DNA from: Candidatus Uhrbacteria bacterium
GTDB lineage: Bacteria > Patescibacteriota > Patescibacteriia > UBA9934
Assembly: GCA_943354605.1 (NCBI GenBank)
Contig: CALRCK010000001.1
Span: forward strand, 84,936 to 148,935
Length of the DNA stretch: 64,000 nt
Reading direction: 5' to 3'
Both the position numbers and the translations under genes were made by a program. Below, one piece after another: positions 3,563 through 64,000 of this stretch. Each line of letters starts with the position of its first letter. Position 1 is the first letter of the stretch. Under the pieces are notes generated by a model. It was not told where the DNA came from. It made no database searches and saw only the letters and a program-made list of their open reading frames with translations.

Positions 3563-3659
3563 TCGTTTGAAAAGCGAGAGACCCCGGAATCCTTTCGGAC
3601 GCCGGGGTCTCCGTTGCGTGGGTCACGTCACCGTCACCCGAACCTCGTCGCGCGTCCCC

Positions 3660-5609
3660 TCAGTTGCAGGGGTACGAGGTGTCGTTCACCTTGTCGCACT
3701 GCGCGCGGCCGCCGTAGGCTTCGAGGGCTTCCGCCTTCTTCTCCGCCTTCGTCTTGGCTCGCGGCTGCCTGGCCGCGGGCTTCGACCCCGACGTCGCGCC
3801 GCTGCCGCTGCCAACCGCGTTTTCCGCGTAGTCGAGCACCTTGGAGCCGCCATTGCTGACGACCCCGGCCGCGCGCGTGGCGCCGTGGCTCATCGACGTT
3901 TCCGTCTCCGAGATCCACTGCGCGCCGAAGATGCGAACGACGATGAACGCCGCGAGCACCCCGGCCGTGACAACGCGCAGCGCGTTGTACCCGTACTGCA
4001 GGTTGAGGATGTCCTGCTTCTCGATCTCGGCGCCGAGCTTCCCCGCGTACGAGCCGTACACCTTCATCGTGGCGCCACGCTTCAGGTACCCGTACGCAAT
4101 GGCGAGGATCGCGATGAACGTGATGCCGCCGATGCGCCAGCTCTGCGGCGTGTTGAGCGCGAGCGCGAGGGTGAGAGGGATCCACGCGAGCACGATCGCG
4201 GAAGCGACCGTGGCACTGATGTTCACGAGGAAGTTGGTTTTGGCCAGCTCCTTCGACAGCGCGTCCACGTGTTCCTTCTCCATCCGGATGATGCTCTTGA
4301 TGAACGCCGGGATGGCGCCCACCGTCTGCCCACCCTTCTGGAGGAGGTTGATGCTCACGAAGTCGAAGGTCACGATGACGAGGAGGCTCACCCAGTAGGC
4401 GAACCAGTCCACCGTCGGCGTGAAGATCGCCGTGATCACCCACACGAGGGTGAGCGCCATCGGCGCCGCGTAGAAGCCGAGGAGCACGCCCACCACCTGC
4501 ACCGCGCCGGAGACGATCCAGCCGAAGGCCATCATGAGCGCCGAGACGCCCAAGATGGTCACGGTGGACCCCCAGGCGAAGCCCGGGAGCCAGTCCTGGT
4601 GCCAGTTTCCGATCCACAGCGTGATGATGCCGTAGATGATGAGCGCGCCGACGACTGCCACCGAACCCTTGCTCACGTTGGCGGCCGTGCGGATGGCCGC
4701 CTGCGCCTTCACGAACGCGCTGCTCGGCTGGAGGCCTGCGAACAGGTGCAGCCGGTCGAGCATGTCCATGCCGCTGGCGACGGCGTTGGTGCCCTGGTTG
4801 CGATCCGCCTGGCCGACGAGGAGGAACTCGAACGCCGGGATCATCCGGCGCACGAAGTTCTCCGCGGAGCGCCGCCAGCCCTCGAGGTTCGGGCCGCTCT
4901 GGCACCCGTGGTTCTCGAAGTCGCGGATCTCCCCCACGAACTCCACGGCGGCATCGAAGTCCGGGCCCGAGAGCCAGTTCTTGATGTCGTCCGCGTTGTC
5001 GCGGAGGGTGTTGAGGAACCCCACGCCGGCCACCGCCGCCTCGCCTTCCAGCTCGGCAACGATGTCGGTGCCGGGCGTGGCTTCGATCCGCATGAGGCGG
5101 AACATGTAGAGGAGGACGAGCTGCTGGGTGTCGGAGTACCCGGCGCCTGCGGTTGCTCCGGAGAGCGCGCGCTGGACGCGGGAGTACGACGCCACCGGAA
5201 CAGCTGCCGGGGTGGGGGTGGTTGCGGGAGAGGCGGTTGCGGGGGTGGCCATGAGGGCTCCGATTCGGGGGTTGCGGGAAAAATTCCGCCAGTGCGCGAC
5301 GACGTCGGCACGGGCTTCTTCGGTGGTCTTGCCGGTCACGCCGCGCAGCATGCGCGACGTCGGCGGGATGGTTTCCACGAATTCGCCCAGCAGGGACAGC
5401 ACACCGCCACGGTTCTGCAACCGCTGAGCGATGAACAGGATGGCCGGGCTGGCGATGTTCGGGATGCTGGCGTAGAGGTCGAAGATGACCCCCACGAATC
5501 CCTCGAGGTTGTCGGACCCACGGATGCGGGCCACGATTTCGTCGGGGAGGCGCTGCTCTCCGTCTTCGGTGAGGGCACGGATGAGGCTTTGGAAGTTGGA
5601 ATCGCTCAT
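3660..5609 (-). CDS. large polytopic membrane protein in GC-rich block 1 (~330-aa soluble N-terminal region plus ~7-8 TM helices), function unknown
   Basis: This is the long minus-strand ORF 3660..5777, with the likely start at MSDSNFQSL (ATG at 5607-5609). The sequence is coherent, with clear hydrophobic helices. The overlapping plus-strand 690-aa ORF and the other-frame minus-strand 669-aa ORF are Arg/Pro/Gly-rich artefacts of high GC. Confidence 0.5.
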   Translation of the reverse strand: MSDSNFQSLIRALTEDGEQRLPDEIVARIRGSDNLEGFVGVIFDLYASIPNIASPAILFIAQRLQNRGGVLSLLGEFVETIPPTSRMLRGVTGKTTEEARADVVAHWRNFSRNPRIGALMATPATASPATTPTPAAVPVASYSRVQRALSGATAGAGYSDTQQLVLLYMFRLMRIEATPGTDIVAELEGEAAVAGVGFLNTLRDNADDIKNWLSGPDFDAAVEFVGEIRDFENHGCQSGPNLEGWRRSAENFVRRMIPAFEFLLVGQADRNQGTNAVASGMDMLDRLHLFAGLQPSSAFVKAQAAIRTAANVSKGSVAVVGALIIYGIITLWIGNWHQDWLPGFAWGSTVTILGVSALMMAFGWIVSGAVQVVGVLLGFYAAPMALTLVWVITAIFTPTVDWFAYWVSLLVIVTFDFVSINLLQKGGQTVGAIPAFIKSIIRMEKEHVDALSKELAKTNFLVNISATVASAIVLAWIPLTLALALNTPQSWRIGGITFIAILAIAYGYLKRGATMKVYGSYAGKLGAEIEKQDILNLQYGYNALRVVTAGVLAAFIVVRIFGAQWISETETSMSHGATRAAGVVSNGGSKVLDYAENAVGSGSGATSGSKPAARQPRAKTKAEKKAEALEAYGGRAQCDKVNDTSYPCN

Positions 5610-5639
5610 GGCGAATTCTCCGGGGCTGTGATGAATTGA

Positions 5640-5830
5640 ACAATTGACGCGAGTTTTGAAAGATGCGGAAAATAAGGGGTTTCCCCAGGATTTCCGGACT
5701 GGGGAGAATAGCAGAAAAATGCAGAAAAGTAAAGGGAAAGGAGGGTTTTGGGGAAAATGAGGTTTCCCCAGGGCCACCTTTACTTTTCCCTGTTTTTCTG
5801 CTATAGTAAAGGGTTAGATTCCTTCAAAAC
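5640..5830. promoter_or_regulatory. divergent intergenic control region with direct and inverted repeats
   Basis: GGTTTCCCCAGG occurs twice (about 5678 and 5762). GCAGAAAAGTAAAGGG faces an imperfect inverted copy CCTTTACTTTTCCCTGTTTTTCTGC. The region is locally AT-rich and lies between two divergently oriented GC-rich genes. Confidence 0.3.
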
Positions 5831-5897
5831 TCGTGTACATTGTTCGATTCACCCGCCGATGCCGCAAAGGATCGGTTTCTCTCGCCAGAGGTCTCTC

Positions 5898-6602
5898 ATG
5901 CTCCTGTCCCTCATCCTGTCTTCCCTCATCTCCGCGGCCCGTGCCGAGGAGCCCACCATCAACGTCACGGTCGTGGCCCCCGCGGTCACGGACGAGGCGG
6001 CCGATGCCACCGAGATCCCGACCAGCCAGTACGGCGTGTCGCTCGTCATCGGCAGCAACTGCAGCGTCAAGGTCACCGGCAAGAACCTGTCCGCCAAAAA
6101 GGCGGGGCAGCTCGCCGGCGAGATCGAGGCGGCCAAGGGCAAGTGCATGGCCAACAAGGCCCGCCGCGACGACAAGGCTCGCGCCGACCAGGTCGCCACC
6201 GCCCGCTCGAAGTCCGAGGACACCCTCATCTCGGCCGGCGCGGATGCGGTCAAGAATGGCGGCAGCGTGGACTACAGCTCCAAGGCCAACGGCGATCTCC
6301 ACTTCGTGGCGGGTCCGGCGGCCGAGTGGAGCGCGTACGGCACCGCGGTCAGCAACGGCAACGGCTACGTCCCCGGCATGTCGGTGGGCTACGTCGATCC
6401 GCAGATGGCGATGCTCTACCGCCTTGGCGCCGGCCAGGCCGCCTTCGCCGCACACCCCGTCGTCCCCGGCGCGGTGATGCCGATGCAGCCGGCCGCACAG
6501 CCCGCGACGACCACCGACAACAGCGCCGCCCTCGGTGAGTGCCAGCAGGCGCTCAAGGCCAAGGGCAAGCTGCTCGAGTCCTGCGAGAACAGCGGCTCGT
6601 AG
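5898..6602 (+). CDS. secreted hypothetical protein (GC-rich block 1)
   Basis: ORF 5748..6602 with the probable start at MLLSLILSSLISAARA, which looks like a signal peptide. It is Ala/Gly/Lys-rich and I recognise no domain. Confidence 0.45.
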   Translation: MLLSLILSSLISAARAEEPTINVTVVAPAVTDEAADATEIPTSQYGVSLVIGSNCSVKVTGKNLSAKKAGQLAGEIEAAKGKCMANKARRDDKARADQVATARSKSEDTLISAGADAVKNGGSVDYSSKANGDLHFVAGPAAEWSAYGTAVSNGNGYVPGMSVGYVDPQMAMLYRLGAGQAAFAAHPVVPGAVMPMQPAAQPATTTDNSAALGECQQALKAKGKLLESCENSGS

Positions 6603-6748
6603 TCGTCGGTGTGTGGTGCGGTCGGTCTCGAAAGGGGCCGGCCGCCGGATGGGCCACGATACGGTCCCCATTCCTCGCGGTTTGATGGAGTCCCTCGGGA
6701 CATTATTGCCGCAAAACGTTCCTCGTCTCGAAACCTCCCGGAGTTCCC

Positions 6749-7372
6749 ATGTCCTTGTTCCTCTTCCTCGTTTCTTCCTTCGCTCTCGCCGCCGCTGGTG
6801 GCCCCATGGCCCCGCGTACGGTGGCCCATCCGTACCTCCCCAACGTGGAGCTCGCGATGGACGCGTCGAACTGCTCGGCGGACACGAACTGCGTCACCGT
6901 GGTGAACACGGGAAGCACGTTCCTCGTGCCGCAGAACAGCAACGCACCGGGCGGGATGCGCGTGGTGGACCCGGAGGGGTACACGAACGGCATCTACAAG
7001 GACGGCCTTCCGGTGTTCGTCGGCTTCACGGTCGATCCCACCACCGGCGAGACTATCCCGATGCTCAACGGCACGTTCGTGTCGGCCATCGAACCCTGCA
7101 TCCGCAGCGGCTCCTGGCCCACGACCGCGCTCCGCGTGCGCACCGCCAAGGAGATCACGGTCACCGCGGAGTCGGTGGTGTTCTACCCGGAGCCGGGCCC
7201 GGTCACCAAGGCGTTCGATGTCCAGACCGGGACGATCATCCGGTACCACCCCGGCTACGGCGAGACCGTGGGTCAGGTGGACCCGATCAAGAGCGTTCTC
7301 CGGAACGCGATCGGCGAGCCGACCACCTACGCCTGGCGCATCGCGCTGGGCAACGGTCGCTGCCAGAGCTAG
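6749..7372 (+). CDS. secreted hypothetical protein with 4 Cys (GC-rich block 1)
   Basis: The N-terminus MSLFLFLVSSFALAAAGG looks like a signal peptide. No domain recognised. Confidence 0.45.
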   Translation: MSLFLFLVSSFALAAAGGPMAPRTVAHPYLPNVELAMDASNCSADTNCVTVVNTGSTFLVPQNSNAPGGMRVVDPEGYTNGIYKDGLPVFVGFTVDPTTGETIPMLNGTFVSAIEPCIRSGSWPTTALRVRTAKEITVTAESVVFYPEPGPVTKAFDVQTGTIIRYHPGYGETVGQVDPIKSVLRNAIGEPTTYAWRIALGNGRCQS

Positions 7373-7400
7373 TCGGGTTCAGCCAGTGTGACTCGTGACT

Positions 7401-7460
7401 GTTCGTCAGTACGCGTGACACACGACGGCGCCGCCATTCCTGAATAGGGGTGGCGGCGTT
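7401..7460 (+). terminator. conserved 24-nt motif GTTCGTCAGTACGCGTGACACACG followed by a GC hairpin and T-run
   Basis: The motif at 7401-7424 is identical at 23 of 24 positions to 16051-16074. Here it is followed by the hairpin GCGCCGCCA…TGGCGGCG and then TTTCGATTTT. Confidence 0.5.
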
Positions 7461-7494
7461 TCGATTTTAGAAGCGCTTTGCCGCTATTTTGTTT

Positions 7495-7578
7495 CAGTCA
7501 TGTTGAGCGCAGCGAAACATCTCCGCAGGGAGTGCTGGTAACCTACGGGAGATTCTTCACTTCGTTCAGAATGACTGA
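7495..7578. repeat. palindromic hairpin repeat (family R2), copy A
   Basis: GTCATGTTGAGCGCAGCGAAACATCTCC … GGGAGATTCTTCACTTCGTTCAGAATGAC form imperfect inverted arms. It sits between convergent gene ends. Confidence 0.55.
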
Positions 7579-7585
7579 TCGGATT

Positions 7586-8917
7586 CTATACGTGAGTTTT
7601 GCGCGATACCAACATTCCTACCAAACAGAATGCGGTGAGTATCACTAAATCATTTTTGAAAAATGGGACATCGACCAAGCCATGAATCGTCATTGTGAGT
7701 ATTGCGGCAGCGAAGGCAAGGACCAGCGCGTCGTCTTTGCGTCGCCATGCGGTTCGCGTAAGAAGGAACGCTCCAGTGATCAGGCCAATAAGGCCAATAA
7801 GACCCATTTCTGACCACACATTCAGCATGATGTTGTGCGGATACTGAAAAATTTCGTAGAACGTCGCGTCGTGATACGGCGCAAGCGCTGCAGGGTAGCC
7901 GTTCAGGCCGGCCCCAAGGAACGGGCGATCTGCAAGCATGGTGAGCGTTTCACTCCATTGCGCGCGGCGAACAAGGCCGGACGAATCGTGGAGTGCAATT
8001 TTTTGAATGATCGACGGCGCGAAGAGCGACACCGCACATGCTCCGGTAATGGTTGCGGCGATGATGGCGTATTTGATTCGTCCAGCAATCGGCGCGAGGA
8101 GTCCGACGATCACGAGCGCAACGGGGATTGCGACAAGAGCGGCTTCTGTTTTTGCTGCAACAATTCCGCCGAGCATGAGGAAGATTGTAATGATTTCAGA
8201 TACACCCAAGCCCCCTCCAACTCCCCCATAAATGGCGGAGAGAAGCCCGGTGATTCCTCTCCCCCCATTTATGGGGGGAGTCGGAGGGGGGCTTTTACGC
8301 ACGGAGAGGATTCGATTGGAAAGCTGCACCATCGCCATCGTCACGATTGGCGCAATAAAGAGTCCGACAGCATTTGGATAATCATACAGCGATGTTGCGC
8401 GGTTCTCGATGGCCCAAGCGTCCGGAATACCAACGTGGGTGAGGATCTGCAGAATAGCGAGTATACCAACGGCGGTTGCCGATGCAATGAGCACGTTGAT
8501 CATACGTTCGACGTCGTCACGATCAGTCATAACCGCTCTGACCACGAACGCGAGGAGCATTGGTTCAATGATGTACGCCTTCAGAATGCCGAGCGCAGAA
8601 AGCGTGTCTGGTGCGATGATGGTAGAAATTATTCCGGCGATGACGACGAGTGCCATCGGAATCCGATACCAGCCAAACGATTCCCAAATCGTAGAGACGG
8701 CCCGGCGGGCCGTTTCCGACCGTAATCGAATCACCGCATTCGCGATCGTAATTAAAAGGAATCCTTCAAGCAGCGTGGAAGGAATCGGTCCAATAGTGAA
8801 TCGAACGAGATACGTCGGCAGGAGCGCGAAGAGGAGAACAATGCCGAGTTTTTGATTTCGCCACGAAAGAACAGCAAAGGCGGCGATTACGGCGGTGACG
8901 AGGATGGGGAAGATCAT
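7586..8917 (-). CDS. polytopic membrane protein, O-antigen ligase/polymerase-like (Wzy_C-type) candidate
   Basis: It is 443 aa with about 10-12 hydrophobic helices and sits adjacent to the Wzx-like flippase. The family assignment is by architecture only. Confidence 0.4.
   Translation of the reverse strand: MIFPILVTAVIAAFAVLSWRNQKLGIVLLFALLPTYLVRFTIGPIPSTLLEGFLLITIANAVIRLRSETARRAVSTIWESFGWYRIPMALVVIAGIISTIIAPDTLSALGILKAYIIEPMLLAFVVRAVMTDRDDVERMINVLIASATAVGILAILQILTHVGIPDAWAIENRATSLYDYPNAVGLFIAPIVTMAMVQLSNRILSVRKSPPPTPPINGGRGITGLLSAIYGGVGGGLGVSEIITIFLMLGGIVAAKTEAALVAIPVALVIVGLLAPIAGRIKYAIIAATITGACAVSLFAPSIIQKIALHDSSGLVRRAQWSETLTMLADRPFLGAGLNGYPAALAPYHDATFYEIFQYPHNIMLNVWSEMGLIGLIGLITGAFLLTRTAWRRKDDALVLAFAAAILTMTIHGLVDVPFFKNDLVILTAFCLVGMLVSRKTHV
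8208..8294. repeat. 87-nt near-perfect GC-rich palindrome embedded in-frame in the ligase-like CDS
   Basis: The arms are AAGCCCCCTCCAACTCCCCCATAAATGG and CCATTTATGGGGGGAGTCGGAGGGGGGCTT. The right arm (8257-8294) matches ileS 62597-62634 at 37 of 38 positions. In the protein it encodes …SPPPTPPINGGRGITGLLSAIYGGVGGGLG…. Confidence 0.6.
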
Positions 8918-8935: not shown

Positions 8936-9018
8936 TCGTGTCATTCTGAGCGAAGCGAAGAATCTTCGTCGTGACCAACACGTAACCCACGAGAGATTCT
9001 TCGCTTCGCTCAGAATGA
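8936..9018. repeat. palindromic hairpin repeat (family R2), copy B
   Basis: GTCATTCTGAGCGAAGCGAAGAATCTTCG … CGAGAGATTCTTCGCTTCGCTCAGAATGAC is a near-perfect inverted repeat, 3' of the flippase gene. Confidence 0.6.
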
Positions 9019-9027
9019 CTGAAGAAG

Positions 9028-13453: not shown

Positions 13454-13737
13454 AAGCCAAAGGACGACGAGCTGCCGCCGGTAAACGGAAGAATGTCGCG
13501 AAGCGTCACAGTTTCGGTCCACTTGATATCGAGAAGTGCGGTGACCCCAAGAACAAAAACAAAGAGATAACTCACGATGTACACCAAAATGAGCGCAATC
13601 GCGCCGCGACCAACCACGCCGTAGCGTGCAAGGTGGAAAATGTTAAAAAAGAGAAACAGTGCCGTGAACGCAACAATGAACGCAAGCGGCACGAGGAGAA
13701 TCCACAATGGAATATCCATACGTGCGTATTGTAGCAT
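13450..13737 (-). CDS. small hydrophobic membrane protein
   Basis: It is 95 aa with 3 predicted helices, and appears translationally coupled to the downstream PH-like gene. Confidence 0.3.
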   Translation of the reverse strand: MLQYARMDIPLWILLVPLAFIVAFTALFLFFNIFHLARYGVVGRGAIALILVYIVSYLFVFVLGVTALLDIKWTETVTLRDILPFTGGSSSSFGL

Positions 13738-14753
13738 TATTTTGTGCGTCCCAAATGTTCGTATGCTCGGGCGGTTGCCATTCTTCCGCGTGGTGTGCGC
13801 TCTAAAAATCCAAGTTGCAGCAAATACGGTTCGTATACTTCTTCGATCGCCTCTGTTTCTTCTTGTGTTGCGGCAGCAAGCGTGCCAAGACCAACGGGAC
13901 CGCCGTTGAATTTGTCGATGAGCGTTCCAAGGAGATGGCGATCAACGGGATCGAGACCAAGATTATCAATCGCGAGCATGGCGAGTGCTTCGTGTGCAAT
14001 GTCCGGAGTGAGGATTCCTTCATGACGAATCTGTGCAACGTCGCGAACGCGTTTCAAGAGACGGTTGGCGATGCGTGGTGTCTTTCGTGCACGGCACGCG
14101 ATGGTTTTCGCGGTGTCTTCGTCCATGTCGAGGTTGAGAATCTTCGCGCTGCGATGAAGAATCTTCGCCATGTCGTCGTCGGAATAGAAGTTGAGGTGCA
14201 GCGTGCAGCCGAAGCGATCGCGGAGTGGGGCCGAGAGCAATGAGAGGCGCGTGGTTGCGCCGATGATGGTAAACGGTTCCAGGGTTAATCGGAGCGTGCG
14301 TGCCGACGGGCCTTTTCCAACCACAAGATCAAGCGCAAAGTCTTCCATTGCCGGATACAACACTTCTTCAATATTGTGATTCATGCGGTGAATTTCGTCG
14401 ATGAACAGCACGTCGCCACGGGAAAGGTTGGAGAGAATCGCGGCAAGATCGCCAACGCGCTCCAGTGCCGGCCCGCTCGTGACACGAACATTCGCGCCCA
14501 TCTCTGCGCCAATGATGTGCGCAAGGGTTGTTTTGCCAAGCCCAGGATTACCGTACAGAAGAAGGTGTTCAATCGGTTCGTTGCGTGCTTTTGCGGCGCT
14601 GATGAAAATCGAAAGATTGGTTTTTAAATCGTTTTGCCCAACAAAATCATCCAGCCGCGACGGCCGCAGGGTATTTTCGACGGTTTGCTCTTCCGGATCC
14701 GCTGTTTTTTCAACGATCCGTGGCGCGTCGCTTCGTTCTTCTTCGTGCAACAT
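13737..14753 (-). CDS. ruvB: Holliday junction branch migration ATPase RuvB
   Basis: It has the Walker A motif [11 protein letters not shown] and LFIDEIHR, plus the conserved RuvB C-terminal winged-helix region. It is 338 aa. Confidence 0.9.
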
Positions 14754-14866: not shown

Positions 14867-16048
14867 ATGGCAAACCCCAAGCCCCCTCCCGATCCCACTC
14901 GTGCCACGATTCTCGGCGAGGATCCGCCGCCTTCCGCCGTTCCTTCGGCAATCCCTATGCCGCCGAACGACCGTCCGGTGCGTCCGGTTCTGCGCCCGGT
15001 CGGTCCGTCCATCACGCCCGGTACCGCCGCATTCCCGCCGGAGATGATCGTGGACCTCTCGCGTCGCACGATGGTTCCCGAAGAGGAGTTCGTCGGCGCG
15101 CCGCCGATTCCCGCAGCGTTGGTGAACGCGCGTACGCTGGGCCTTGGCCCGGCGAAGGTCACCAACGTTCCGCCCCAGCCCCCGCCCGTCCTGCAGAAGG
15201 TTGCGCTCCGCATCACCACGCGGAACGTGCCCGATGCCAAGGCGGAGTCGTGGATCCAATCCCCGACGCCGCTGGGCAAGCCGGTGGCGGTCAACAGTCG
15301 CCTCGTTGCGGTGTTCATCGCTGCCCGGGTGACGAACTTCTTCCCAGGTGCGGAGCCGGGGACGATGATCGTGGAAGTGGATCTCGCGTTCGCCCCGATG
15401 ACGCCCGGCAAGGTGGCGGAGGACTGGGCGCTGCGCTACGCACAGAACGACGCCGAGCTTCAGAAGTCGCTCACCGCGGCCCTGTACATGGCGTTCTCCC
15501 GGCTTCCGCTCTGGCCGGGACTCATCGTTCGCTTCGTTGGTGGGCCGCCAATGACGCAGGCTGATGCGGATGCGAATCGCTACCACGTCTGGATCGACGA
15601 AGCTCGCTCGCCCACGCGGGTGGAGATCGACGACCGGTTCGTGGAAGCGGCTCGAGAGCAGGCGGAGAGTGCGTACCTCAAGGCGGAAGGCGGGCTCTTC
15701 ACCAGGCTGACGCTCATGTGGTGGGAGTGGAAGAACCCGCTTCGGCTCCGCGACTATCGCATGGGAAAACTCCTCGCCGAGCGCGACGATCTGTTGGAGC
15801 TCGACAAGAAGGAGCTGGAGGCACTCAAGACGGCACTTGCTGCGTACGCTGGCCCGGTCATCAGCAGCCAGAGCGCTGTCGCCTTCGGTGACGATCTCGA
15901 TGTGAGGGCGATGATGGAAGCCAAGGGTCGGCAGGGCGTGCGACCGACGGAGATCGAGCGGCCGGAGCCCCCGCGTCGGCCGACGTACCTGGAGCACGAG
16001 CCGCTCCCGGACGGTGCGATGGTTCCGCTCCCGGACGGCGAGGGCTAA
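14867..16048 (+). CDS. Pro-rich hypothetical protein (GC-rich block 2)
   Basis: The ORF is 393 aa, is visibly GC-rich and has a Pro-rich N-terminus. A sigma70-like promoter (TTGACT-17-TGAAAT) lies at about 14798-14830. Confidence 0.4.
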   Translation: MANPKPPPDPTRATILGEDPPPSAVPSAIPMPPNDRPVRPVLRPVGPSITPGTAAFPPEMIVDLSRRTMVPEEEFVGAPPIPAALVNARTLGLGPAKVTNVPPQPPPVLQKVALRITTRNVPDAKAESWIQSPTPLGKPVAVNSRLVAVFIAARVTNFFPGAEPGTMIVEVDLAFAPMTPGKVAEDWALRYAQNDAELQKSLTAALYMAFSRLPLWPGLIVRFVGGPPMTQADADANRYHVWIDEARSPTRVEIDDRFVEAAREQAESAYLKAEGGLFTRLTLMWWEWKNPLRLRDYRMGKLLAERDDLLELDKKELEALKTALAAYAGPVISSQSAVAFGDDLDVRAMMEAKGRQGVRPTEIERPEPPRRPTYLEHEPLPDGAMVPLPDGEG

Positions 16049-16050
16049 AG

Positions 16051-16104
16051 GTTCGGCAGTACGCGTGACACACGGGAGCCTGGCGCGTACGCGTGCCAGG
16101 CTCC
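16051..16104 (+). terminator. conserved 24-nt motif GTTCGGCAGTACGCGTGACACACG followed by a GC hairpin
   Basis: The motif starts 3 nt after the TAA stop. The hairpin is GGAGCCTGGCGCGTACGCGTGCCAGGCTCC, followed by TGCTTGTTT. Confidence 0.5.
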
Positions 16105-16150
16105 TGCTTGTTTGAAACGAAATTATCGGGCAGAATGGTGGGGTGTGAGG

Positions 16151-16264
16151 AGATAAGAACTTTCTCATTTCAGACCAGTTTCGGTGCGCAAGGAGCAAAG
16201 TTCGCGAGGCGTACTTCTCGGTACGTTGAGCGAATTTGCGACGCAGCAAGCCGAAAATGGGCGA
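16151..16264. repeat. repeat family R1, copy 2 (reverse orientation), immediately 5' of tRNA-Leu
   Basis: Its reverse complement aligns with 2954-3066, including the AACGTACCGAGAAGTACGCCTC hairpin block. Confidence 0.6.
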
Positions 16265-16283
16265 AATGACGAAGTTCTTGTGA

Positions 16284-16369
16284 GCCGAGATGGCGGAATG
16301 GTATACGCAAGACACTTAAAATGTCTGGATCGAAAGGTCATGCGGGTTCGACTCCCGCTCTTGGCACCA
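16284..16369 (+). tRNA. tRNA-Leu (anticodon TAA)
   Basis: The cloverleaf was folded by hand. The acceptor is GCCGAGA/TCTTGGC, the anticodon stem AGACA/TGTCT with loop CTTAAAA, a long variable arm, a T-loop TTCGACT, and an encoded CCA. Confidence 0.8.
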
Positions 16370-23054: not shown

Positions 23055-23768
23055 TCAGATGCTCTTCGCGAAGTCCGTGAAGATCTCGCGGTACGCATCG
23101 ACCAGCGCCTGGCCGCCCTCCTGCTCCCGACGGAGCCGCCACTGCAGGGCGAGCGGATCGGTGAACCAGGCGGCGTGCGCTGCGGTGCCGAACGCCGCGT
23201 TCGCTGCCGTATAGGCCGCGTGGTCCGCGTCGTTCCAGTGCATCATCGCACCGTCGAACGTACTCGACGCCATCATCGCCTTGTCTGCCGCCGCTTCCGC
23301 CAGCCAGAGCTTGCGAAGTTCGGGCGGGACGGTCATCGTGAAGTCCTGGATGAGGAGGCCCAGGTACGTGCGGATCTCGACGAGCTTCTGCCGGTCTGCG
23401 AGGAGCATGGAGCCGAGCACGAACGGTTTCAGCTTGCGGTACGTCGCGCGCACGTTGGCCGGGTTCGAGAGGAACTTCCGCTCCTTCTCGCGCATGGCGT
23501 AGTCTGCGCCGTCGGCGTTCGGGTTGTCCTCGAGCATGTACACGTTGTACACGAGCATGTTGCTCGTTTCCGTGAGCGTGCCATGGCTGCACAGCGGCGA
23601 CCACCGCTCCTTGAATTCGGGGATTTGTGCAGCGACGGGGTCCGTGTCGCATCCGATGTTGAGCGGCAGACCGTGTCCGGTCATGAACGCATCGGCGACG
23701 TGCTCGGCGAGCTGCTCTTCGCGGGTGGGTGCGGTGGAGAAGGCGGAGGTGAGGAGGAGAATGAGCAT
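23055..23768 (-). CDS. secreted hypothetical protein (GC-rich block 3)
   Basis: The start is MLILLLTSAFSTA, which looks like a signal peptide. It is visibly GC-rich and I recognise no domain. Confidence 0.4.
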   Translation of the reverse strand: MLILLLTSAFSTAPTREEQLAEHVADAFMTGHGLPLNIGCDTDPVAAQIPEFKERWSPLCSHGTLTETSNMLVYNVYMLEDNPNADGADYAMREKERKFLSNPANVRATYRKLKPFVLGSMLLADRQKLVEIRTYLGLLIQDFTMTVPPELRKLWLAEAAADKAMMASSTFDGAMMHWNDADHAAYTAANAAFGTAAHAAWFTDPLALQWRLRREQEGGQALVDAYREIFTDFAKSI

Positions 23769-23865
23769 GAGTGGCCCTGGGTTGCACAAAGAAAATAGCA
23801 AATATAAGCGAAAAAGTCAACTCTTTCGTTTGCGAAACGATTAATCTGCCGTATAGTGTTCCGGT

Positions 23866-24471: not shown

Positions 24472-24590
24472 AGGAGGGTAATCCCGACGCGGCAATCCAG
24501 GCTCAGTCATTCCGAGCGTAGGCGAGGAATCTCCGCAGGTGATCCGTGATAACCTGCGAGAGATTCTTCACTTCGTTCAGAATGACTGAG
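24472..24590. repeat. palindromic hairpin repeat (family R2), copy C, with an extra upstream half-unit
   Basis: CAGTCATTCCGAGCGTAGGCGAGGAATCTCCGCAGG … CTGCGAGAGATTCTTCACTTCGTTCAGAATGACTGAG. It shares about 60 nt with copy A. Confidence 0.55.
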
Positions 24591-26824: not shown

Positions 26825-26936
26825 CGCACATATTTGGTGATAGTTTCGGTGCGCAACGAGCAAAGCTTTTGAAACGTACTTCATGTGTACGTTGAAAAAG
26901 TTTGCGAAGGTGCAAGCCGAAAATAGCCCAAATAGG
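26825..26936. repeat. repeat family R1, copy 3 (reverse orientation), immediately 5' of 23S rRNA
   Basis: Its reverse complement aligns with copies 1 and 2 (GGCTATTTTCGGCTTGC…AACGTACACATGAAGTACG…TTGCGCACCGAAACT). Confidence 0.55.
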
Positions 26937-26964: not shown

Positions 26965-29995
<3,031 letters not shown>

Positions 29996-30071
29996 ATTCA
30001 CTGATTGTTCTCGGAAACGAGTAACAATACGTTCTTCACTATTTGCAGAAACTGATCGAAAGGATCCTCCG

Positions 30072-30182
30072 TCTTGGTGGCACTTCCGGCAGGGCAACAC
30101 CCGTTCCCATCCCGAACACGGTCGTTAAGCCTGCACGGGCCGATGGTAGTCAAGGTGGCGAGAGTAGGTGGCCGCCAGGACA
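30072..30182 (+). rRNA. rrf: 5S ribosomal RNA
   Basis: …CCGTTCCCATCCCGAACACGG…GCCGATGGTAGT…GAGAGTAGGTGGCCGCCAGG is a typical 5S core. The ends are approximate. Confidence 0.85.
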
Positions 30183-36498: not shown

Positions 36499-37035
36499 AT
36501 GGACGCGTTCCTTTCCCGTATCTCTGTCCTCATCGCCGACACCAGCCCCAAGGCCGTCGCCACCCGCGAGTACATCCTCGCGATCCTCGACGGCAAGGTA
36601 GTTATCCCCGACGGTATTGCGATGCTCATGGAGGAACTCGCGTGCGACGGCCACGTCAATCCCGAGATCGACGACATCCACTTTCCTGGAGCCGATGCGT
36701 TCGTCTCCACCGAAGGCGTCGTTCCCGTCGAGATCCCCATGGACCCGTGGACCGATTTGGATGCACCCGTGTACCTTGCCGCCATGACGCCCCCGATGCG
36801 GTCGGTCATGCCGGACAAGGGCTTGAAGTGGGCAGCGGAGAACAAGGATGTTCAGAGAAAAACCCCGCTCGTTATTCTCGGCCAGTTGTGCCGTGCTTCC
36901 AACGGGAACGTCTGTGCTCTTGTGTTGGACGGGAACAACCGCAGGCGGAGCGCATTCCTTTTCAACGTACAGGTCGGGTTCAGTCGGCACTTCCTCGTCC
37001 TCGCCGAGCCAAAGAAGAAGACGCTCGGAACCTAG
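36499..37035 (+). CDS. hypothetical protein (GC-rich block 5)
   Basis: The ORF is 178 aa. The overlapping 243-aa ORF in another frame is Arg-rich and was rejected. Confidence 0.35.
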   Translation: MDAFLSRISVLIADTSPKAVATREYILAILDGKVVIPDGIAMLMEELACDGHVNPEIDDIHFPGADAFVSTEGVVPVEIPMDPWTDLDAPVYLAAMTPPMRSVMPDKGLKWAAENKDVQRKTPLVILGQLCRASNGNVCALVLDGNNRRRSAFLFNVQVGFSRHFLVLAEPKKKTLGT

Positions 37036-42901: not shown

Positions 42902-43663
42902 ATGGACCAAAATACGGGTTCGCTCGTATCAGGATATCGACTGTCGGAGGTTCCTATGTCTGCGCTCTTCAACCTTGGGCACATCGCCAAACTCCACGAA
43001 ATTCAGAAGGCTCACCTCAAGGCTGGCCTGCCCGGCATCGGCCGGGAGGTGGAGGAGCTCATCTCTCGCCTGGAAAACGGCGGCGTTGGAAAGAGCGCTG
43101 GTGACCCGCGGATCGCTCAGGCCAAGAAGCTCTGGGACCTCGGCTTCGGCCGGGAGCTCAAGATGAACTCCTTCCACGCTTACTTCGCGACCATCCCGGA
43201 GATTCCCAAAAGCCTCGTGGCGGACAATCCTGTGCTTCCGCTCCTCGTGCTCGTCGATCCGCGCCTGGGCCACACGCGCTCGTGCCGCTTGGATGGGCTG
43301 AGGTTCGCCGAATACGGCTGGGACGACACGTCCCTCGTGCCGTTCGACGACCGTCACGTCATGCCCTCCGCGCCGTACTGGGTTCGCGCCCACGACGGAA
43401 GCCCCAACCTCGGAAAGAAGCCGAGCGACTGTCGTGCTAAGTGCACCGGTAAGCTCTATGCAGGAACGGCCGACGTGGGTATCGCGATCTGGATCCAGCA
43501 CGGCAAATGCAATCACGTGATGGACCTTCCCGGTTCCGTTCACATCTCCAACCGTGAGAGCTGCGCGTGCCTCGGTGTGTGGCGCGGCGGGCTGGAGCTG
43601 GGCGCGTCCAGGCACGATGTGACGAATACGCTTTTCGGCTCCGTTGTCTTCGTCCGGGAGTGA
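42902..43663 (+). CDS. hypothetical protein (GC-rich block 6)
   Basis: The ORF is 253 aa with an alternative start at MSALFNLGHIAK. No domain recognised. Confidence 0.35.
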   Translation: MDQNTGSLVSGYRLSEVPMSALFNLGHIAKLHEIQKAHLKAGLPGIGREVEELISRLENGGVGKSAGDPRIAQAKKLWDLGFGRELKMNSFHAYFATIPEIPKSLVADNPVLPLLVLVDPRLGHTRSCRLDGLRFAEYGWDDTSLVPFDDRHVMPSAPYWVRAHDGSPNLGKKPSDCRAKCTGKLYAGTADVGIAIWIQHGKCNHVMDLPGSVHISNRESCACLGVWRGGLELGASRHDVTNTLFGSVVFVRE

Positions 43664-43763
43664 CGACGCTCGGTACTTGAGCCTTGGCACTACGCGTGTC
43701 TCGACTCTCAATCACGATCCCCATCGGCGCAAGCTGGCGGGGATTCGTCGTATAGGAAGAACG

Positions 43764-51540: not shown

Positions 51541-52461
51541 CTAGCCGACGAGCGCGAGCTTCGCCATGCGGTACACGCCCGCGAGCGTTGCCGCACCGGC
51601 GATCCACCTGCCGGGGTGGCAGAAGATCGCGCCCTCCACCCCCGTGAGGGTGGCGAGATCAGCGCCGCGGACGCCGGCCCAGCTGGCCGGAAGGGCGAGA
51701 CGCTGGGCGAAGCTCCCGCGCTTGGGCGGGACGCTGCGGATGTACCAGTACGAGCCGTCCTCGCTGGGGTAGACGACGAACTTCGCCGCCTTCGACGCGC
51801 TGGCCTCGTCCGCCCAGTCGAAGTTGAAGGTCTCGAACTGGACGACCTTCTTGCCCTTCGCGTTGGCCAGCGCCACCTTCACCTCGCGCCGGGCCGTGAT
51901 GATCGCGGCGGCGTTCCGAACGGCGTCCCGGATGATGCCCTCGGCAACCTCGACGGCGCGCCCGAAGGCGGCGTTGTAGTCACGGTCGGCATCGTTCCAC
52001 GCGGGGTTCATCGCCCCGAGGATGTGGCTGACGGTGTACGGGGCGGCGCCCTCGAACCCGCGCTTCTTGCCGGTGATCCGCTGGCCGTTGTCGGTCGCGT
52101 CCACGGGGATCACGAGCGTCCGATCGACCTCAGCGGCCACCTCGATGTCCCCGTTGCAGATCTGCGCACCGTAGTGCTTCCAGATGAGCCCGAACGCGGA
52201 GAGGAAGATGGGGGAATCGGTGCGGGTGCCGGCGCGGCCGGACTGGTGGTGGTCGAAGCGGCCGTTCAGCGGGTTGTAGACCGCGCCGACGTCCACGACG
52301 ATGTCGCAGGAGGCGAGGATCGCGGGGTCGCGGGTGCGGATGACATCGCAGTTCGCGATCAGCCGCAGAGCGGCGACCGCGAGGACATCGTCTGCGTGGA
52401 ACTCTCCGTTGTGGGTGGCAAGAGTGATGGAGGAGGAGAGGACGAGGGCAGGGATGGACAT
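51541..52461 (-). CDS. MYG1/UPF0160-family metal-dependent hydrolase (GC-rich block 7)
   Basis: The N-terminal ATHNGEFHADDVLAV motif and later DHHQ are characteristic of MYG1. Confidence 0.6.
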   Translation of the reverse strand: MSIPALVLSSSITLATHNGEFHADDVLAVAALRLIANCDVIRTRDPAILASCDIVVDVGAVYNPLNGRFDHHQSGRAGTRTDSPIFLSAFGLIWKHYGAQICNGDIEVAAEVDRTLVIPVDATDNGQRITGKKRGFEGAAPYTVSHILGAMNPAWNDADRDYNAAFGRAVEVAEGIIRDAVRNAAAIITARREVKVALANAKGKKVVQFETFNFDWADEASASKAAKFVVYPSEDGSYWYIRSVPPKRGSFAQRLALPASWAGVRGADLATLTGVEGAIFCHPGRWIAGAATLAGVYRMAKLALVG

Positions 52462-52707: not shown

Positions 52708-53055
52708 CTAGCCCTCGGACACCGTCCAGAGGCCGAACCGGAACTTCGCCCCGTCGATCTCGGCCTGCGTGTACTCGTGGCGCCCCTCGAGCCGGGGCAG
52801 GCCGACGACACCCATGACCAGCAACGAGTCGCCGGGCTTCAGGTTGATCGAGGCCGCCTTCGTGGGGATCTCGCAGAAGATGCCGAACCGGTTGTTCATC
52901 GCGGCGATCGTCAGCGAGTGCGACGGGTTCAGGCACAGGGCACAGTCACCCTCGATGACTGCCTTGGCCTCCGCGGGCGTGAGCTCGCGGCGGGAGACGT
53001 TGGCGGTGGCAGGGAACATGTTGTCAGCGAGGCCGAAGCCGAAGTACGTGGTCAT
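52708..53055 (-). CDS. small hypothetical protein (GC-rich block 7)
   Basis: The ORF is 115 aa and begins MTTYFGFGLADNMFP. No confident family. Confidence 0.3.
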   Translation of the reverse strand: MTTYFGFGLADNMFPATANVSRRELTPAEAKAVIEGDCALCLNPSHSLTIAAMNNRFGIFCEIPTKAASINLKPGDSLLVMGVVGLPRLEGRHEYTQAEIDGAKFRFGLWTVSEG

Positions 53056-61812: not shown

Positions 61813-64000
61813 ATGCAAAGTCATTCCGATCAAGAAAAGGAACTTTTAGAATCTTGGGAGAAGAATCGCATTTTTGAGCGCTCGGTGGAGGAGCGGCCGG
61901 AAGATAAACGATACACCTTTTACGACGGCCCGCCGTTTGCGACGGGTTTGCCACATTACGGCAGTATTTTACCGTCGGTGATTAAGGACGTGGTTCCTCG
62001 GTACTGGACCATGAAGGGTTATCGCGTGGAGCGAGTGTGGGGCTGGGATTGTCATGGAGTTCCGATTGAAAACATGATCGAGCAGGAGCTTGGACTGAAG
62101 GGCGGAAAGAAGGGAATTGAGGAGCTCGGTATCGATAAGTTCAATGCTGCATGTCGCGCAGCAATTCTGCGTTTCGATAAAGAATGGGAAGTCATCATCA
62201 AGCGCGTTGCACGGTGGGTTGATTTCAAACACTCGTACAAAACCATGGACAACACGTTCATGGAGAGTGTCTGGTGGGGGTTCAAGGAGTTGTACGAAAA
62301 GAAGCTGGTTCGCGAAGGCAAACGCGTGATTTTGTATTGTCCACGCTGCGCAACGCCACTCAGCAACTTTGAGATTGCGATGGATAACTCGTACAAAGAT
62401 GTTGAAGACAATTCGCTGTACGTAAAGTTTAAGCGTAAGGGAACGGACAATGAATATTTTCTTGCTTGGACGACTACTCCGTGGACGCTCCCGGGAAACG
62501 TCGGCCTCGCCGTTGATCGCGATGCGGAATACGTGAAAGTCCAGGTTGGTGATGAATTCGTCTGGATGGCGAAGCAGCGCATGGAGGCGATAACTTCTCT
62601 CCCCACATTTATGGGGGGAGTCGGAGGGGGGCTTGATTCTGGATCGATCGTCGAAACCGTGAAGGGCTCCGATCTTCTCGGTATCGAATATGGACCGCTC
62701 TATTCGTACATGCCGCTTGATGGCAAGAAGGCACATTACATTCTTCCAGCAACATTCGTGTCGCTCGACGACGGAACCGGAATTGTGCACACCGCGGCTG
62801 TTTTTGGCGAAGACGACTACAAACTTGCACAAGAGTTCGATCTTCCGTGCGTTTCAACGCTCGATGATCAAGGGAAGTTTCTCGATTTCGTCGAGCCGTT
62901 GAAAGGTGTGTTCTTCAAGAAAGCAGAGCAATGGATTATTGACGATCTTCAAAAAAGAAACTTAGTTTGTGCAGTAACGAAGTTTGTTCACTCATATCCA
63001 ATGTGCTATCGCTGCTCCACACCGCTCTACTACAACGCGGTGCCGGCGTGGTTTATTGATGTGCAATCGCTCAAGCCACAGCTCATCGCGCAGAATGAGA
63101 ATATCAATTGGTATCCAGAGCATTTGAAGAAAGGACGATTCGGAAAAGGTCTCGAGACCGCACCAGATTGGAACATCTCACGTTCACGATATTGGGGAAC
63201 GCCGATGCCGGTGTGGGTGGCGGAAGACGGCACGCGCCGTGTTGTTGGTTCCTTCAACGAGCTGAAAACATGGGCCGTTGATCTGTCGCGAGTAGAATCG
63301 CTTACAGATTTCCATCGTGAGTTTATTGATCCGATCGATGTGTGGGTGGATGACGCGAGGACGAAAAAAGGGAAGCGCATTCCGGAGGTGTTCGATTGTT
63401 GGGTGGAATCTGGATCAATGCCATTTGCGGCGATCCATGCGCCGTTTGAGAATAAGGAGAAGTTCGCCGCGGCATTCCCGGCTCAATTCATCACCGAATA
63501 CATCGCCCAGACTCGAGCGTGGTTCTATGTGATGCACGTGATGTCTGTGGCGCTGTTTGGACGAAATGCGTACGAAAATGTTCTGACGACGGGAACAATT
63601 CTTGCTGACGACGGGCAGAAGATGAGTAAGTCAAAAAAGAATTACCCGGATCCAACAATCTTGATTGAAAAACACAGTGCCGATGCATTGCGGTTCTATT
63701 TGATGTCGCAACCGCTGGTAAACGGTGAGAATTTGAATTTCAACGAATCTGGCGTTGATGAGGTTTCCAAGAAGTTCATCACCATCATGAAGAACGTGGT
63801 GTCGTTCTATGGGTTGTACAAAGAGCACGACGACGGGCGAACGCCGTCCAACGTGCATGTGCTCGACCAATGGATCATGGCACGCATCGCACAAACACTT
63901 GGAGAAGAAACGACAGCCATCGAACGATACGATCTTTCCGACGCAGCCCGATCGCTCCAATCATTCGTGACCGATCTTTCCACGTGGTATGTTCGCCGAT
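61813..64000 (+). CDS. ileS: isoleucine--tRNA ligase (3' end beyond the window)
   Basis: It has PPFATGLPHYG (HIGH-class motif region), WGWDCHGVP and the KMSKS motif (KMSKSKKN). The frame is open to the window end. Confidence 0.9.
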   Translation, partial: MQSHSDQEKELLESWEKNRIFERSVEERPEDKRYTFYDGPPFATGLPHYGSILPSVIKDVVPRYWTMKGYRVERVWGWDCHGVPIENMIEQELGLKGGKKGIEELGIDKFNAACRAAILRFDKEWEVIIKRVARWVDFKHSYKTMDNTFMESVWWGFKELYEKKLVREGKRVILYCPRCATPLSNFEIAMDNSYKDVEDNSLYVKFKRKGTDNEYFLAWTTTPWTLPGNVGLAVDRDAEYVKVQVGDEFVWMAKQRMEAITSLPTFMGGVGGGLDSGSIVETVKGSDLLGIEYGPLYSYMPLDGKKAHYILPATFVSLDDGTGIVHTAAVFGEDDYKLAQEFDLPCVSTLDDQGKFLDFVEPLKGVFFKKAEQWIIDDLQKRNLVCAVTKFVHSYPMCYRCSTPLYYNAVPAWFIDVQSLKPQLIAQNENINWYPEHLKKGRFGKGLETAPDWNISRSRYWGTPMPVWVAEDGTRRVVGSFNELKTWAVDLSRVESLTDFHREFIDPIDVWVDDARTKKGKRIPEVFDCWVESGSMPFAAIHAPFENKEKFAAAFPAQFITEYIAQTRAWFYVMHVMSVALFGRNAYENVLTTGTILADDGQKMSKSKKNYPDPTILIEKHSADALRFYLMSQPLVNGENLNFNESGVDEVSKKFITIMKNVVSFYGLYKEHDDGRTPSNVHVLDQWIMARIAQTLGEETTAIERYDLSDAARSLQSFVTDLSTWYVRR
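62597..62634. repeat. 38-nt GC-rich repeat unit inserted in-frame in ileS (single arm)
   Basis: CTCTCCCCACATTTATGGGGGGAGTCGGAGGGGGGCTT matches 8257-8294 at 37 of 38 positions. In the protein it encodes …SLPTFMGGVGGGLDSG…. Confidence 0.6.

Follow-up and report, generated by a model that had tools for sequence, protein, structure and literature searches.

Why do unrelated genes of one bacterium carry nearly the same short sequence between their stop codons and their terminators? The question was raised by a stretch of 64,000 nucleotides (64 kb) from a Candidatus Uhrbacteria genome (contig CALRCK010000001.1, positions 84,936 to 148,935; hereafter the window), in which the 24-nt motif GTTCGTCAGTACGCGTGACACACG follows one open reading frame (ORF) and recurs, with a single base changed, behind a second ORF. 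Both ORFs belong to a class of genes with a high G+C content at third codon positions (GC3). The motif lies in sense orientation in the 3' untranslated region (3'UTR), directly ahead of a hairpin that varies among relatives in the manner of a sense-strand RNA structure; it is conserved above the level of the coding sequences and confined to one lineage. Since it is common to several unrelated genes and better conserved than the genes themselves, the comparison of sequences suggests that the motif is probably a small lineage-specific control element in the tail of the messenger RNA (mRNA), and not the scar of a mobile element.

Sequence and position of the motif

Copy 1 of the motif starts 29 nt past the TAG codon (7370-7372) of an ORF of 207 amino acids (aa), and copy 2, GTTCGGCAGTACGCGTGACACACG, starts 3 nt past the TAA codon (16046-16048) of a 393-aa ORF. 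They differ only by a T/G exchange at motif position 6. In 100 dinucleotide-preserving shuffles no match with up to three mismatches was obtained, and the pair reached an E-value of 0.003 in a self-comparison with blastn. A third, degenerate copy, GTTCGGGTGACGGTGACGTGACCCACG, absent from the initial annotation of the window, was located between the stop codon of the gene 3660-5609(-) and its terminator. Its E-value of 0.53, from an nhmmer profile built from ten motif instances, is not significant. All three copies are in sense to an upstream GC3-rich ORF, with the stop codon upstream and a strong intrinsic terminator downstream. The motif ends 0-5 nt before the terminator stem, and this position is kept in four unrelated genes.

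Further words belong to the same 3'UTRs. Directly past the stop codon of the 207-aa gene, the box GGTTCAGC opens a degenerate first tandem motif unit, GGTTCAGCCAGTGTGACTCGTGAC; the equivalent position at L008 reads GGTTCGGC (L-numbers denote loci of related genomes). The word GTACGCGTG recurs in the loop of the copy-2 terminator hairpin at 16087-16095. The 3'UTRs follow the pattern GGTTCRKC ... TACGCGTGAC ... CACG, with repeated GTGAC words in some of them. A GC3-rich unit is thereby laid out as a promoter, an ORF, its stop codon, a short motif-bearing 3'UTR, a hairpin 0-5 nt later and an interrupted U-run.

The hairpins behind copies 1 and 2 start within 0-3 nt of the motif, contain 15 pairs each and are the two top terminator-like sites in the first 20 kb of the window, with folding energies of -47 and -35 kcal/mol (z = -4.7 and -3.7); across all three terminators the z-scores range from -3.0 to -4.7. 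As is typical of intrinsic terminators, each closes a gene with a G+C-rich stem-loop and, on the sense strand, an adjoining U-rich tract; the U-tracts are interrupted (TTTCGATTTT, CTTGTTTG). The T-run of the copy-2 terminator overlaps the -35 region of the tRNA-Leu promoter. Among the orthologs of the copy-1 terminator, three pairs carried double changes and several G.U pairs had become A.U, and the copy-2 hairpin was nearly invariant. On the antisense strand these G.U and compensatory changes would be A.C mismatches, which assigns the terminator hairpins to the sense RNA strand.

The 24-mer itself is not a structural element common to its copies. Copy 1 forms the loop and the 3' arm of a small hairpin, P1, with the arms GUGUGACUCGU and ACGCGUKACAC. 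Its consensus from four orthologs comprises ten pairs without covariation, one G.U pair being G.G in the window. Copy 2 lacks a 5' pairing partner and is essentially unpaired. The copies therefore share sequence, not structure: neither a common secondary structure nor covariation was found within the motif, and no Rfam family matched the sense strand at E <= 0.9.

The initial annotation of the window had reported near-identical 24-mers behind the stop codons of GC-rich genes, and its sequences, coordinates, single difference and stop distances were all correct. The hairpin and T-run that it described behind each copy are the best terminator-like hairpins of the first 20 kb, and the upstream genes proved to be GC-rich (GC3 0.92 and 0.81 against ~0.55) and unrelated in sequence, as it had stated. 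The proposed conserved 3' signature of separately located cassettes is genuine and sits on compositionally distinct gene units. The suggested link to transcription termination agrees with the observed tie between motif and terminator.

Table 1 Coordinates of the features described in this study (numbered from the first nucleotide of the window)
Feature	Position	Strand	Remarks
Motif copy 1	7401-7424	+	24 nt; 3'UTR of ORF 6749-7372
Motif copy 2	16051-16074	+	16050-16074 including the preceding G
Motif copy 3 (degenerate)	3643-3617	-	
Box GGTTCAGC	7376-7383	+	
Hairpin P1	7386-7423	+	
Possible collapsed relative of the motif	51532-51521	-	
Intrinsic terminator of ORF 6749-7372	7427-7470	+	hairpin 7427-7460, then interrupted T-run TCGATTTT
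Intrinsic terminator of ORF 14867-16048	16073-16116	+	hairpin 16073-16106, then CTTGTTTG
Intrinsic terminator of ORF 3660-5609(-)	3571-3609	-	hairpin 3609-3580, then TCTCGCTTTT
GC3-rich gene class	3660-7372, 14867-16048, 23055-23801, 36499-37035, 42902-43663, 51541-52461, 52708-53055		GC3 0.78-0.95
ORFan, 207 aa	6749-7372	+	GC3 0.92; signal-peptide-like N-terminus
Hypervariable ORFan, 393 aa	14867-16048	+	GC3 0.81; between ruvB (13737-14753, -) and tRNA-Leu(taa) (16284-16369)
Multi-pass membrane ORFan	3660-5609	-	GC3 0.88; ~649 aa from MSDSNF start
MYG1 gene, GC3-rich	51541-52461	-	sole GC-rich gene of known family
Divergent promoter region	5632-5851		nested inverted repeat
Rod-like hairpin element	16131-16280	+	
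Rod-like hairpin element	~26838-26935	+	
Rod-like hairpin element	~3062-2945	-	
~40-nt intergenic repeat	7539-7578, 8982-9022, 24550-24589		
38-nt direct repeat	62597-62634, 8257-8294		97% identity
23S and 5S rRNA genes	26965-30180		

Enrichment behind GC3-rich genes

Weaker relatives of the motif had also been listed behind other GC-rich genes. In the profile search the candidate at 43686-43698 reached an E-value of 2.1 and the others were not recovered. One site, GGTTCGTCACAC, is a possible collapsed relative, located 9 nt past the stop codon of the MYG1 gene. It is not directly followed by a terminator and was not significant by itself in the nhmmer profile of the window, and it fits the enrichment by context described below. 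As only the two 24-mers were significant in the profile search, the weaker relatives are unproven apart from this site.

The 3' flanks of 62 curated ORFs of the window, nine of them GC3-rich and 53 others, were compared by Fisher tests. The word GGTTCR was present within 40 nt of the stop codon in four of the nine GC3-rich ORFs and in one of the 53 others (p = 0.001), GTKAC(N1-3)MACG within 70 nt in 3/9 and 0/53 (p = 0.002), and CGTCA within 45 nt in 4/9 and 4/53 (p = 0.012), with the patterns chosen post hoc and somewhat favoured by G+C-rich flanks. In the window as a whole the sub-words ACGCGT, GTGAC, GGTTCG, TACGCGTG and CACACG occurred at Markov-expected counts, with neither the avoidance expected of restriction-modification sites nor the over-representation of uptake sequences. 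These counts match expectation and thus argue against a genome-wide over-representation of the sub-words.

Distribution and conservation in related genomes

The exact motif was absent from 185,579 species-representative genomes. The strict pattern had no match in the JGI metagenomes, and a relaxed pattern retrieved only two contigs there, both from the same sister species. Among the viral contigs of IMG/VR, relaxed patterns gave only chance matches inside phage coding sequences. Within the reference genomes and JGI metagenomes searched, the exact motif is restricted to this lineage. As the public scans yielded the same lineage or chance matches only, they revealed no donor and no viral link. 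Literature searches on 3' motifs or islands of GC-rich genes in Uhrbacteria or the candidate phyla radiation (CPR) brought up nothing relevant.

In orthologous 3'UTRs the motif was 89-96% and the hairpin 97-100% identical, compared with ~70% DNA and 49-68% protein identity of the ORFs. At the ruvB locus, nucleotide identity between the window and L002 and L004 was 82-84% for ruvB, 71-73% for the 5' intergenic region, 69-70% for the ORF, 89% for the motif and 97-100% for the hairpin. A sliding-window plot fell from 0.8-0.9 in ruvB to 0.4-0.7 in the ORF and returned to ~0.85 in motif and hairpin. Copy 2 is kept in L002/L013, L004, L045 and L047 and degenerate in L012 and L048. Across five lineages its core GTTCGGCAGTACGCGTGAC is almost fixed at the ruvB locus, and the three to four bases ahead of the final ACG are variable (A-C, ATC, GAT, GAC). 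Even the L010 allele, only 25% identical, still has TTCGTCAG..GAC..CACG directly ahead of its own hairpin.

Copy 1 is matched at 23 of its 24 positions in the ortholog L008, and its 3' half is kept in L009 and L005. The proteins of this 207-aa locus share 49-56% identity; GTGTGACTCGTKAC and TACGCGTKACACACGACG, in contrast, do not vary among four lineages. At the 705-aa locus, the L005 ortholog of copy 3 keeps GGTGACGTGACCAACG. Judged from these alignments, which point to purifying selection at the ruvB and 207-aa loci, the motif region is more strongly constrained than the proteins, even if one lineage can do without it. The GTACGCGTG loop word at 16087-16095 has been lost together with the motif in L011 and L014, a hint at a linkage or a joint replacement of the two.

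The two near-identical copies also changed in concert. Three copy-1 orthologs all read GTTACACACG, and the window has GTGACACACG, a change from GTTAC to GTGAC that turned the G.U pair of the small hairpin into G.G. In copy 2, ACATCACG became ACACACG in the lineage of the window; its closest orthologs (L004, L002/L013) read GTGACATCACG and others likewise contain an extra base, and the window again has GTGACACACG. In the lineage of the window each copy thus shifted toward the state of the other. The data fit either gene conversion between the 3'UTRs or a shared optimum set by a common reader.

GC3-rich genes and their loci

The window has a G+C content of 53%. Its blocks above 60% are individual genes with a GC3 of 0.78-0.95, compared with ~0.55 in ordinary genes. 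These genes are mutually unrelated in sequence, and several of the proteins have signal-peptide-like or multi-pass membrane sequences. Searches of Pfam, PHROG and NCBIfam gave no match for the GC-rich proteins except for the one MYG1-family gene, and PHROG had none for nine GC-rich proteins. Among the homologs of MYG1 no GC-rich donor was identifiable. The AlphaFold model of the 207-aa protein is all-beta, with a mean predicted local distance difference test (pLDDT) score of 65, and found no match in the PDB at E <= 0.001 (Foldseek).

The gene trio at 3660-7372 is flanked by a T4SS-pilin gene cluster and a Wzy_C gene. The product of 3660-5609(-), the gene adjoining the pilin cluster, is 75% identical in amino acids to its L005 ortholog. 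The divergent promoter region between this gene and 5859-6602(+) contains a nested inverted repeat with arms of 32 nt (84% complementary) and 28 nt (86%), which occurs once in the window. The promoters and 5'UTRs of the two genes are therefore mirror images of each other (TTCAAAACTCGYGTMMATTGTTCRATTCA).

Retrieval by RuvB gave metagenome-assembled genomes of Candidatus Uhrbacteria (Patescibacteria) as the nearest relatives. At the ruvB locus, all relatives with a RuvB at least 79% identical possess a GC-rich ORF between ruvB and tRNA-Leu. In L019-L021 (RuvB ~77%) these two genes are 130-270 nt apart with no ORF between them, and the small ORF at this site in L017 has no homology to the GC-rich ORF. 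Identity to the 393-aa protein of the window was 62-68% in L002/L013 and L004 (among the identities listed), 56% in L012 and 23-27% in L010, L015, L018 and L039. The counterpart in L011 was 34% identical while RuvB was 94-95% identical and both flanks were conserved. The hypervariability of the gene at 14867-16048, as seen in L010-L018, would fit a replacement of alleles or a strong selection for diversity.

In L047 and L011, the interval between tRNA-Leu and the NUDIX gene contains a fourth unrelated GC3-rich gene (GC3 0.91), coding for a DeoC-like protein, which the window lacks at this site. The unit has its own promoter-like site and a 3'UTR with ..GTGGTGACTTCGGTGACCACG, a hairpin and a T-run, so that a GTGAC..GTGACCACG element again lies ahead of the terminator. 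The right junction, located by comparing the filled with the empty site, was ~25 nt downstream of the T-run and at a distance of ~60 nt from the motif. In this sole comparison at nucleotide resolution, the junction showed neither a target-site duplication nor a matching 5' repeat.

The adjacency of ruvB and tRNA-Leu in distant relatives and the presence or absence of the DeoC-like unit among close ones support the view that such units are discrete insertions. They are syntenic across a clade and not freely mobile, and their high GC3 is retained in orthologs of species 75-78% identical in DNA. Candidates for the maintenance of a GC3 of 0.8-0.9 are transfer with slow amelioration, biased gene conversion and selection.

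Other repeats and RNA genes in the window

Three copies of a rod-like hairpin element of ~100-125 nt with the core AGTTTCGRTG..CGTACTT(loop)GTACGTTGA..AAGYCGAAAAT are located in the gap between promoter and tRNA-Leu(taa), just 5' of the 23S rRNA gene and between two pilin genes. RNAalifold predicted 49 pairs for the element at tRNA-Leu from four orthologs, 13 of them with double compensatory changes. The element is missing from the tRNA-Leu site in L002 and L047 and had no match in Rfam. Possible identities are a structured leader, a processing element or a repeat similar to miniature inverted-repeat transposable elements.

An intergenic repeat of ~40 nt (GAGATTCTTCACTTCGTTCAGAATGAC...) is present in three copies, two of which have a hairpin (ATCTCCGCAGG...GAGAT) just upstream; one copy lies ~80 nt downstream of the copy-1 terminator. 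A 38-nt direct repeat occurs in two copies. The window further contains four tRNA genes and the 23S and 5S rRNA genes, with no 16S gene beside the latter two, so the rRNA operon is unlinked.

A proposed control element in the 3'UTR

We tentatively favour the reading of the motif as a cis-element of the 3'UTR that functions on the sense strand, jointly with the terminator beside it. The 24-mer would be the core of a lineage-specific element of a special gene class in Candidatus Uhrbacteria, consisting of self-contained, GC3-rich, mostly ORFan and partly hypervariable units in the gaps of a conserved backbone. We infer that it would be transcribed as the final single-stranded or weakly paired segment ahead of the terminator stem, where a partner acting in trans could read its sequence; this might be an RNA-binding protein, an RNase or, less likely, an RNA. 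Partner and terminator together might then set 3'-end formation, stability or both in this class of mRNAs. The expected effect would be akin to that of repetitive extragenic palindromic (REP) elements and other terminator-proximal 3'UTR elements of other bacteria.

Several observations weigh against such a function. A clear copy of the motif is present in only three of the nine GC3-rich ORFs of the window, and the degenerate copies fail a profile based on sequence only; the copy census covers 64 kb and the short contigs of relatives. In L011 and L014 the motif is deleted and the hairpin loop altered, and because the terminator stem stays in place, the motif is dispensable in that lineage. Gene conversion, with no function of the motif, could likewise account for the concerted change of the two copies. 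The analysis identified neither a trans-acting factor nor a target, and antisense pairing of the motif with the 62 translation-initiation regions of the window was no better than that of shuffled motifs.

Conserved terminator-proximal 3'UTR elements common to unrelated genes are an already known kind of feature. In E. coli and its relatives, REP elements, the bacterial interspersed mosaic elements (BIMEs) and other 3'UTR stabilisers near terminators are found past stop codons within the transcript, near terminators or in joint action with them and behind unrelated genes, and are thought to act on the 3' ends of mRNAs. However, REP elements are imperfect palindromes of ~35 nt with hundreds of copies in both orientations, often clustered, whereas the Uhrbacteria motif is non-palindromic, occurs two to three times in 64 kb and always in sense, and belongs to one compositional gene class. 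A REP or BIME identity was rejected on these grounds, the few copies, the single orientation, the lack of a palindrome in the 24-mer and the unpaired state of copy 2. A resemblance also exists to small RNAs derived from 3'UTRs, such as CpxQ and SdhX of enterobacteria, in which a conserved single-stranded stretch precedes the gene's own terminator and varies less than the coding end. Like such a seed, the motif exceeds the coding sequence in conservation and is separated from the hairpin by 0-5 nt. In contrast to CpxQ and SdhX, one 'seed' would here be carried by several mRNAs, and no target complementarity was detected among the 62 initiation regions of the window. The Sma/Cla sequence of Neisseria pilin genes likewise is a conserved 3' sequence of variable surface-protein genes at separate loci, but the Neisseria loci are homologous and exchange sequence, while the Uhrbacteria ORFs are mutually unrelated. 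Among features of this known kind, the motif is an undescribed variant, restricted to one lineage of CPR bacteria and tied to genes of a distinct base composition.

The units as such resemble phage morons, which are autonomous units of promoter, gene and terminator with a deviant base composition. Each Uhrbacteria unit is one gene equipped with a sigma-70-like promoter and an intrinsic terminator, differs strongly in GC3 from its neighbours and is inserted between conserved genes. Promoter-like sites upstream, terminators, deviant GC3 and empty sites in relatives were all found for the GC-rich units. Unlike morons, these are not located in a prophage: no phage genes were detected, and their neighbours are ruvB, tRNA, NUDIX, pilin and wzy genes; they are therefore moron-like in layout, though outside a prophage. 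We know of no common 3'UTR motif shared by morons.

Alternative explanations

In the leading alternative, a somewhat unlikely one, the motif would be part of an inherited or copied terminator module without a function of its own. The 3'UTR and terminator would have been duplicated or acquired from a common source, the near-identity of the 24-mers kept up by occasional gene conversion, and their conservation would in part reflect hitch-hiking with the terminator. The shift of each copy toward the state of the other, with one change breaking a base pair, would be expected from such a history, as would the loss of the motif in L011 and L014 with gene and terminator stem intact. The copy-1 3'UTR moreover resembles two tandem degenerate motif units, which points to a history of duplication. 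The second GTACGCGTG word in the copy-2 terminator loop and the failure to find a partner or target agree with this explanation as well. It accounts less well for a motif identity of 89-96% next to 71-73% in the 5' intergenic region and ~70% in the ORF, a difference seen in several independent lineages and at two loci, and for the 0-5 nt distance to the hairpin kept in four unrelated genes. Minimal pairing lengths also place 24 nt at the lower limit of homologous gene conversion. 

That the motif is a boundary or recombination signal at the DNA level, a site for the insertion or exchange of GC-rich single-gene units, appears improbable. The units are discrete insertions in the backbone (L019-L021 empty; the DeoC-like unit present or absent), and the ruvB-locus ORF, though flanked by conserved sequence, is hypervariable (34% aa identity against 95% in RuvB). 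The only junction resolved to the nucleotide nevertheless lies off the motif, which disfavours a recombination boundary: it was found ~60 nt away, ~25 nt beyond the terminator, and the target-site duplication that the initial annotation had proposed to look for was not seen in this one filled/empty comparison, nor was a matching 5' repeat. The common recombination signal suggested there is thus disfavoured. The searches gave no support for a common donor, with 0/185,579 genomes, the same lineage in the JGI data, chance matches in IMG/VR and no donor for MYG1. The units are syntenic over a clade, and the variation of the hairpins, with G.U pairs, is of the RNA type. Integron cassettes come to mind, as a conserved element directly follows unrelated promoter-proximal ORFs, with a hairpin-forming region after the ORF, and the motif start GTTCGKC loosely resembles the attC core GTTRRRY. 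Such cassettes are usually promoterless and arrayed beside intI with attI and Pc, whereas the Uhrbacteria units are single and scattered, with their own promoters and U-run terminators, syntenic across species and with a junction off the motif. GTTCGKC, directly past the stop codon, departs from GTTRRRY by the C at position 4, it has no R''/L'' partner, and no RYYYAAC/GTTRRRY pair flanks the hairpin; attC was rejected accordingly. The earlier statement that the motif is not an integron attC holds, since there is no R''/R' pair and no cassette array, and neither the ORFs examined nor the genes called at the fetched loci included a recognisable integrase. Highly improbable is a binding site for a DNA-binding protein (operator or parS-like) or a DNA uptake sequence beside the terminators. 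Copy 1 contains a weak dyad, GTCA-N7-TGAC, and in Neisseria and the Pasteurellaceae terminators often contain uptake sequences; natural competence is presumed for Patescibacteria. The dyad, however, is only 4 bp long and imperfect in copy 2, there are two to three copies per 64 kb, and neither model requires the strict sense orientation. A DNA uptake sequence was rejected in view of sub-words at Markov-expected counts and an exact motif present twice in 64 kb, compared with ~1/kb for DNA uptake sequences and uptake signal sequences. We attach the least weight, next to none, to a type II hammerhead ribozyme on the minus strand, in which the reverse complement of copy 1 would supply the CUGACGA box, the T-run the CGAAAC box and the terminator hairpin stem III, all in the order known from the Rfam family Hammerhead_II (RF02276). 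The model scored 28.5 bits at 7466-7393(-), with E = 0.0005 for a 271-nt search that rescales to ~0.1 for the whole window, and the L008 ortholog, in which the cleavage triplet is a proper GUC, scored 31.9 bits. Neither score reaches the gathering score of 37, and a window-wide search at the gathering threshold had no match. The cleavage site in the window is GCC instead of GUC, stem I contains non-standard pairs and stem II is barely formed. L009 and L005 lack CUGANGA though the rest of the 3'UTR is conserved, copy 2 reads CUGCCGA and so has lost the essential A6, and the G.U pairs of the hairpin become A.C mismatches on the minus strand. A working hammerhead II was rejected for these subthreshold scores, the defective core and stems, the box missing in L009, L005 and copy 2, and the wrong-strand G.U pairs. 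An origin of GGTTCG from a tRNA T-arm was also rejected, as by eye no similarity to tRNA-Leu extended beyond the hexamer.

Implications

If the motif were only an inherited terminator module, the finding would be an ordinary one. The compositionally odd genes that carry the motif probably act at the cell surface. In an unlikely extension of the favoured reading of a 3'UTR control element, the motif would be a common 3'UTR 'address tag' that marks GC3-rich, fast-evolving accessory genes, namely secreted and membrane ORFans with a probable role in host contact, and is read by a dedicated trans-acting factor beside the terminator. The tags of the different loci would co-evolve with this factor, and the genes would form a lineage-specific post-transcriptional regulon in a reduced genome poor in regulators. 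The same system would then include the maintenance of a GC3 of 0.8-0.9.

The stable GC3 of 0.8-0.9 in a genome of 53% G+C is perhaps the more interesting lead. This puzzle bears on how foreign or fast-evolving genes are kept separate from the backbone, whether by selection, biased gene conversion or repeated transfer. Recognisable regulators are few in the very small genomes of Patescibacteria, and to our knowledge almost nothing is known of post-transcriptional gene control in this group. A conserved 3'UTR element of unrelated genes would, if true, provide a concrete handle on this control in Patescibacteria.

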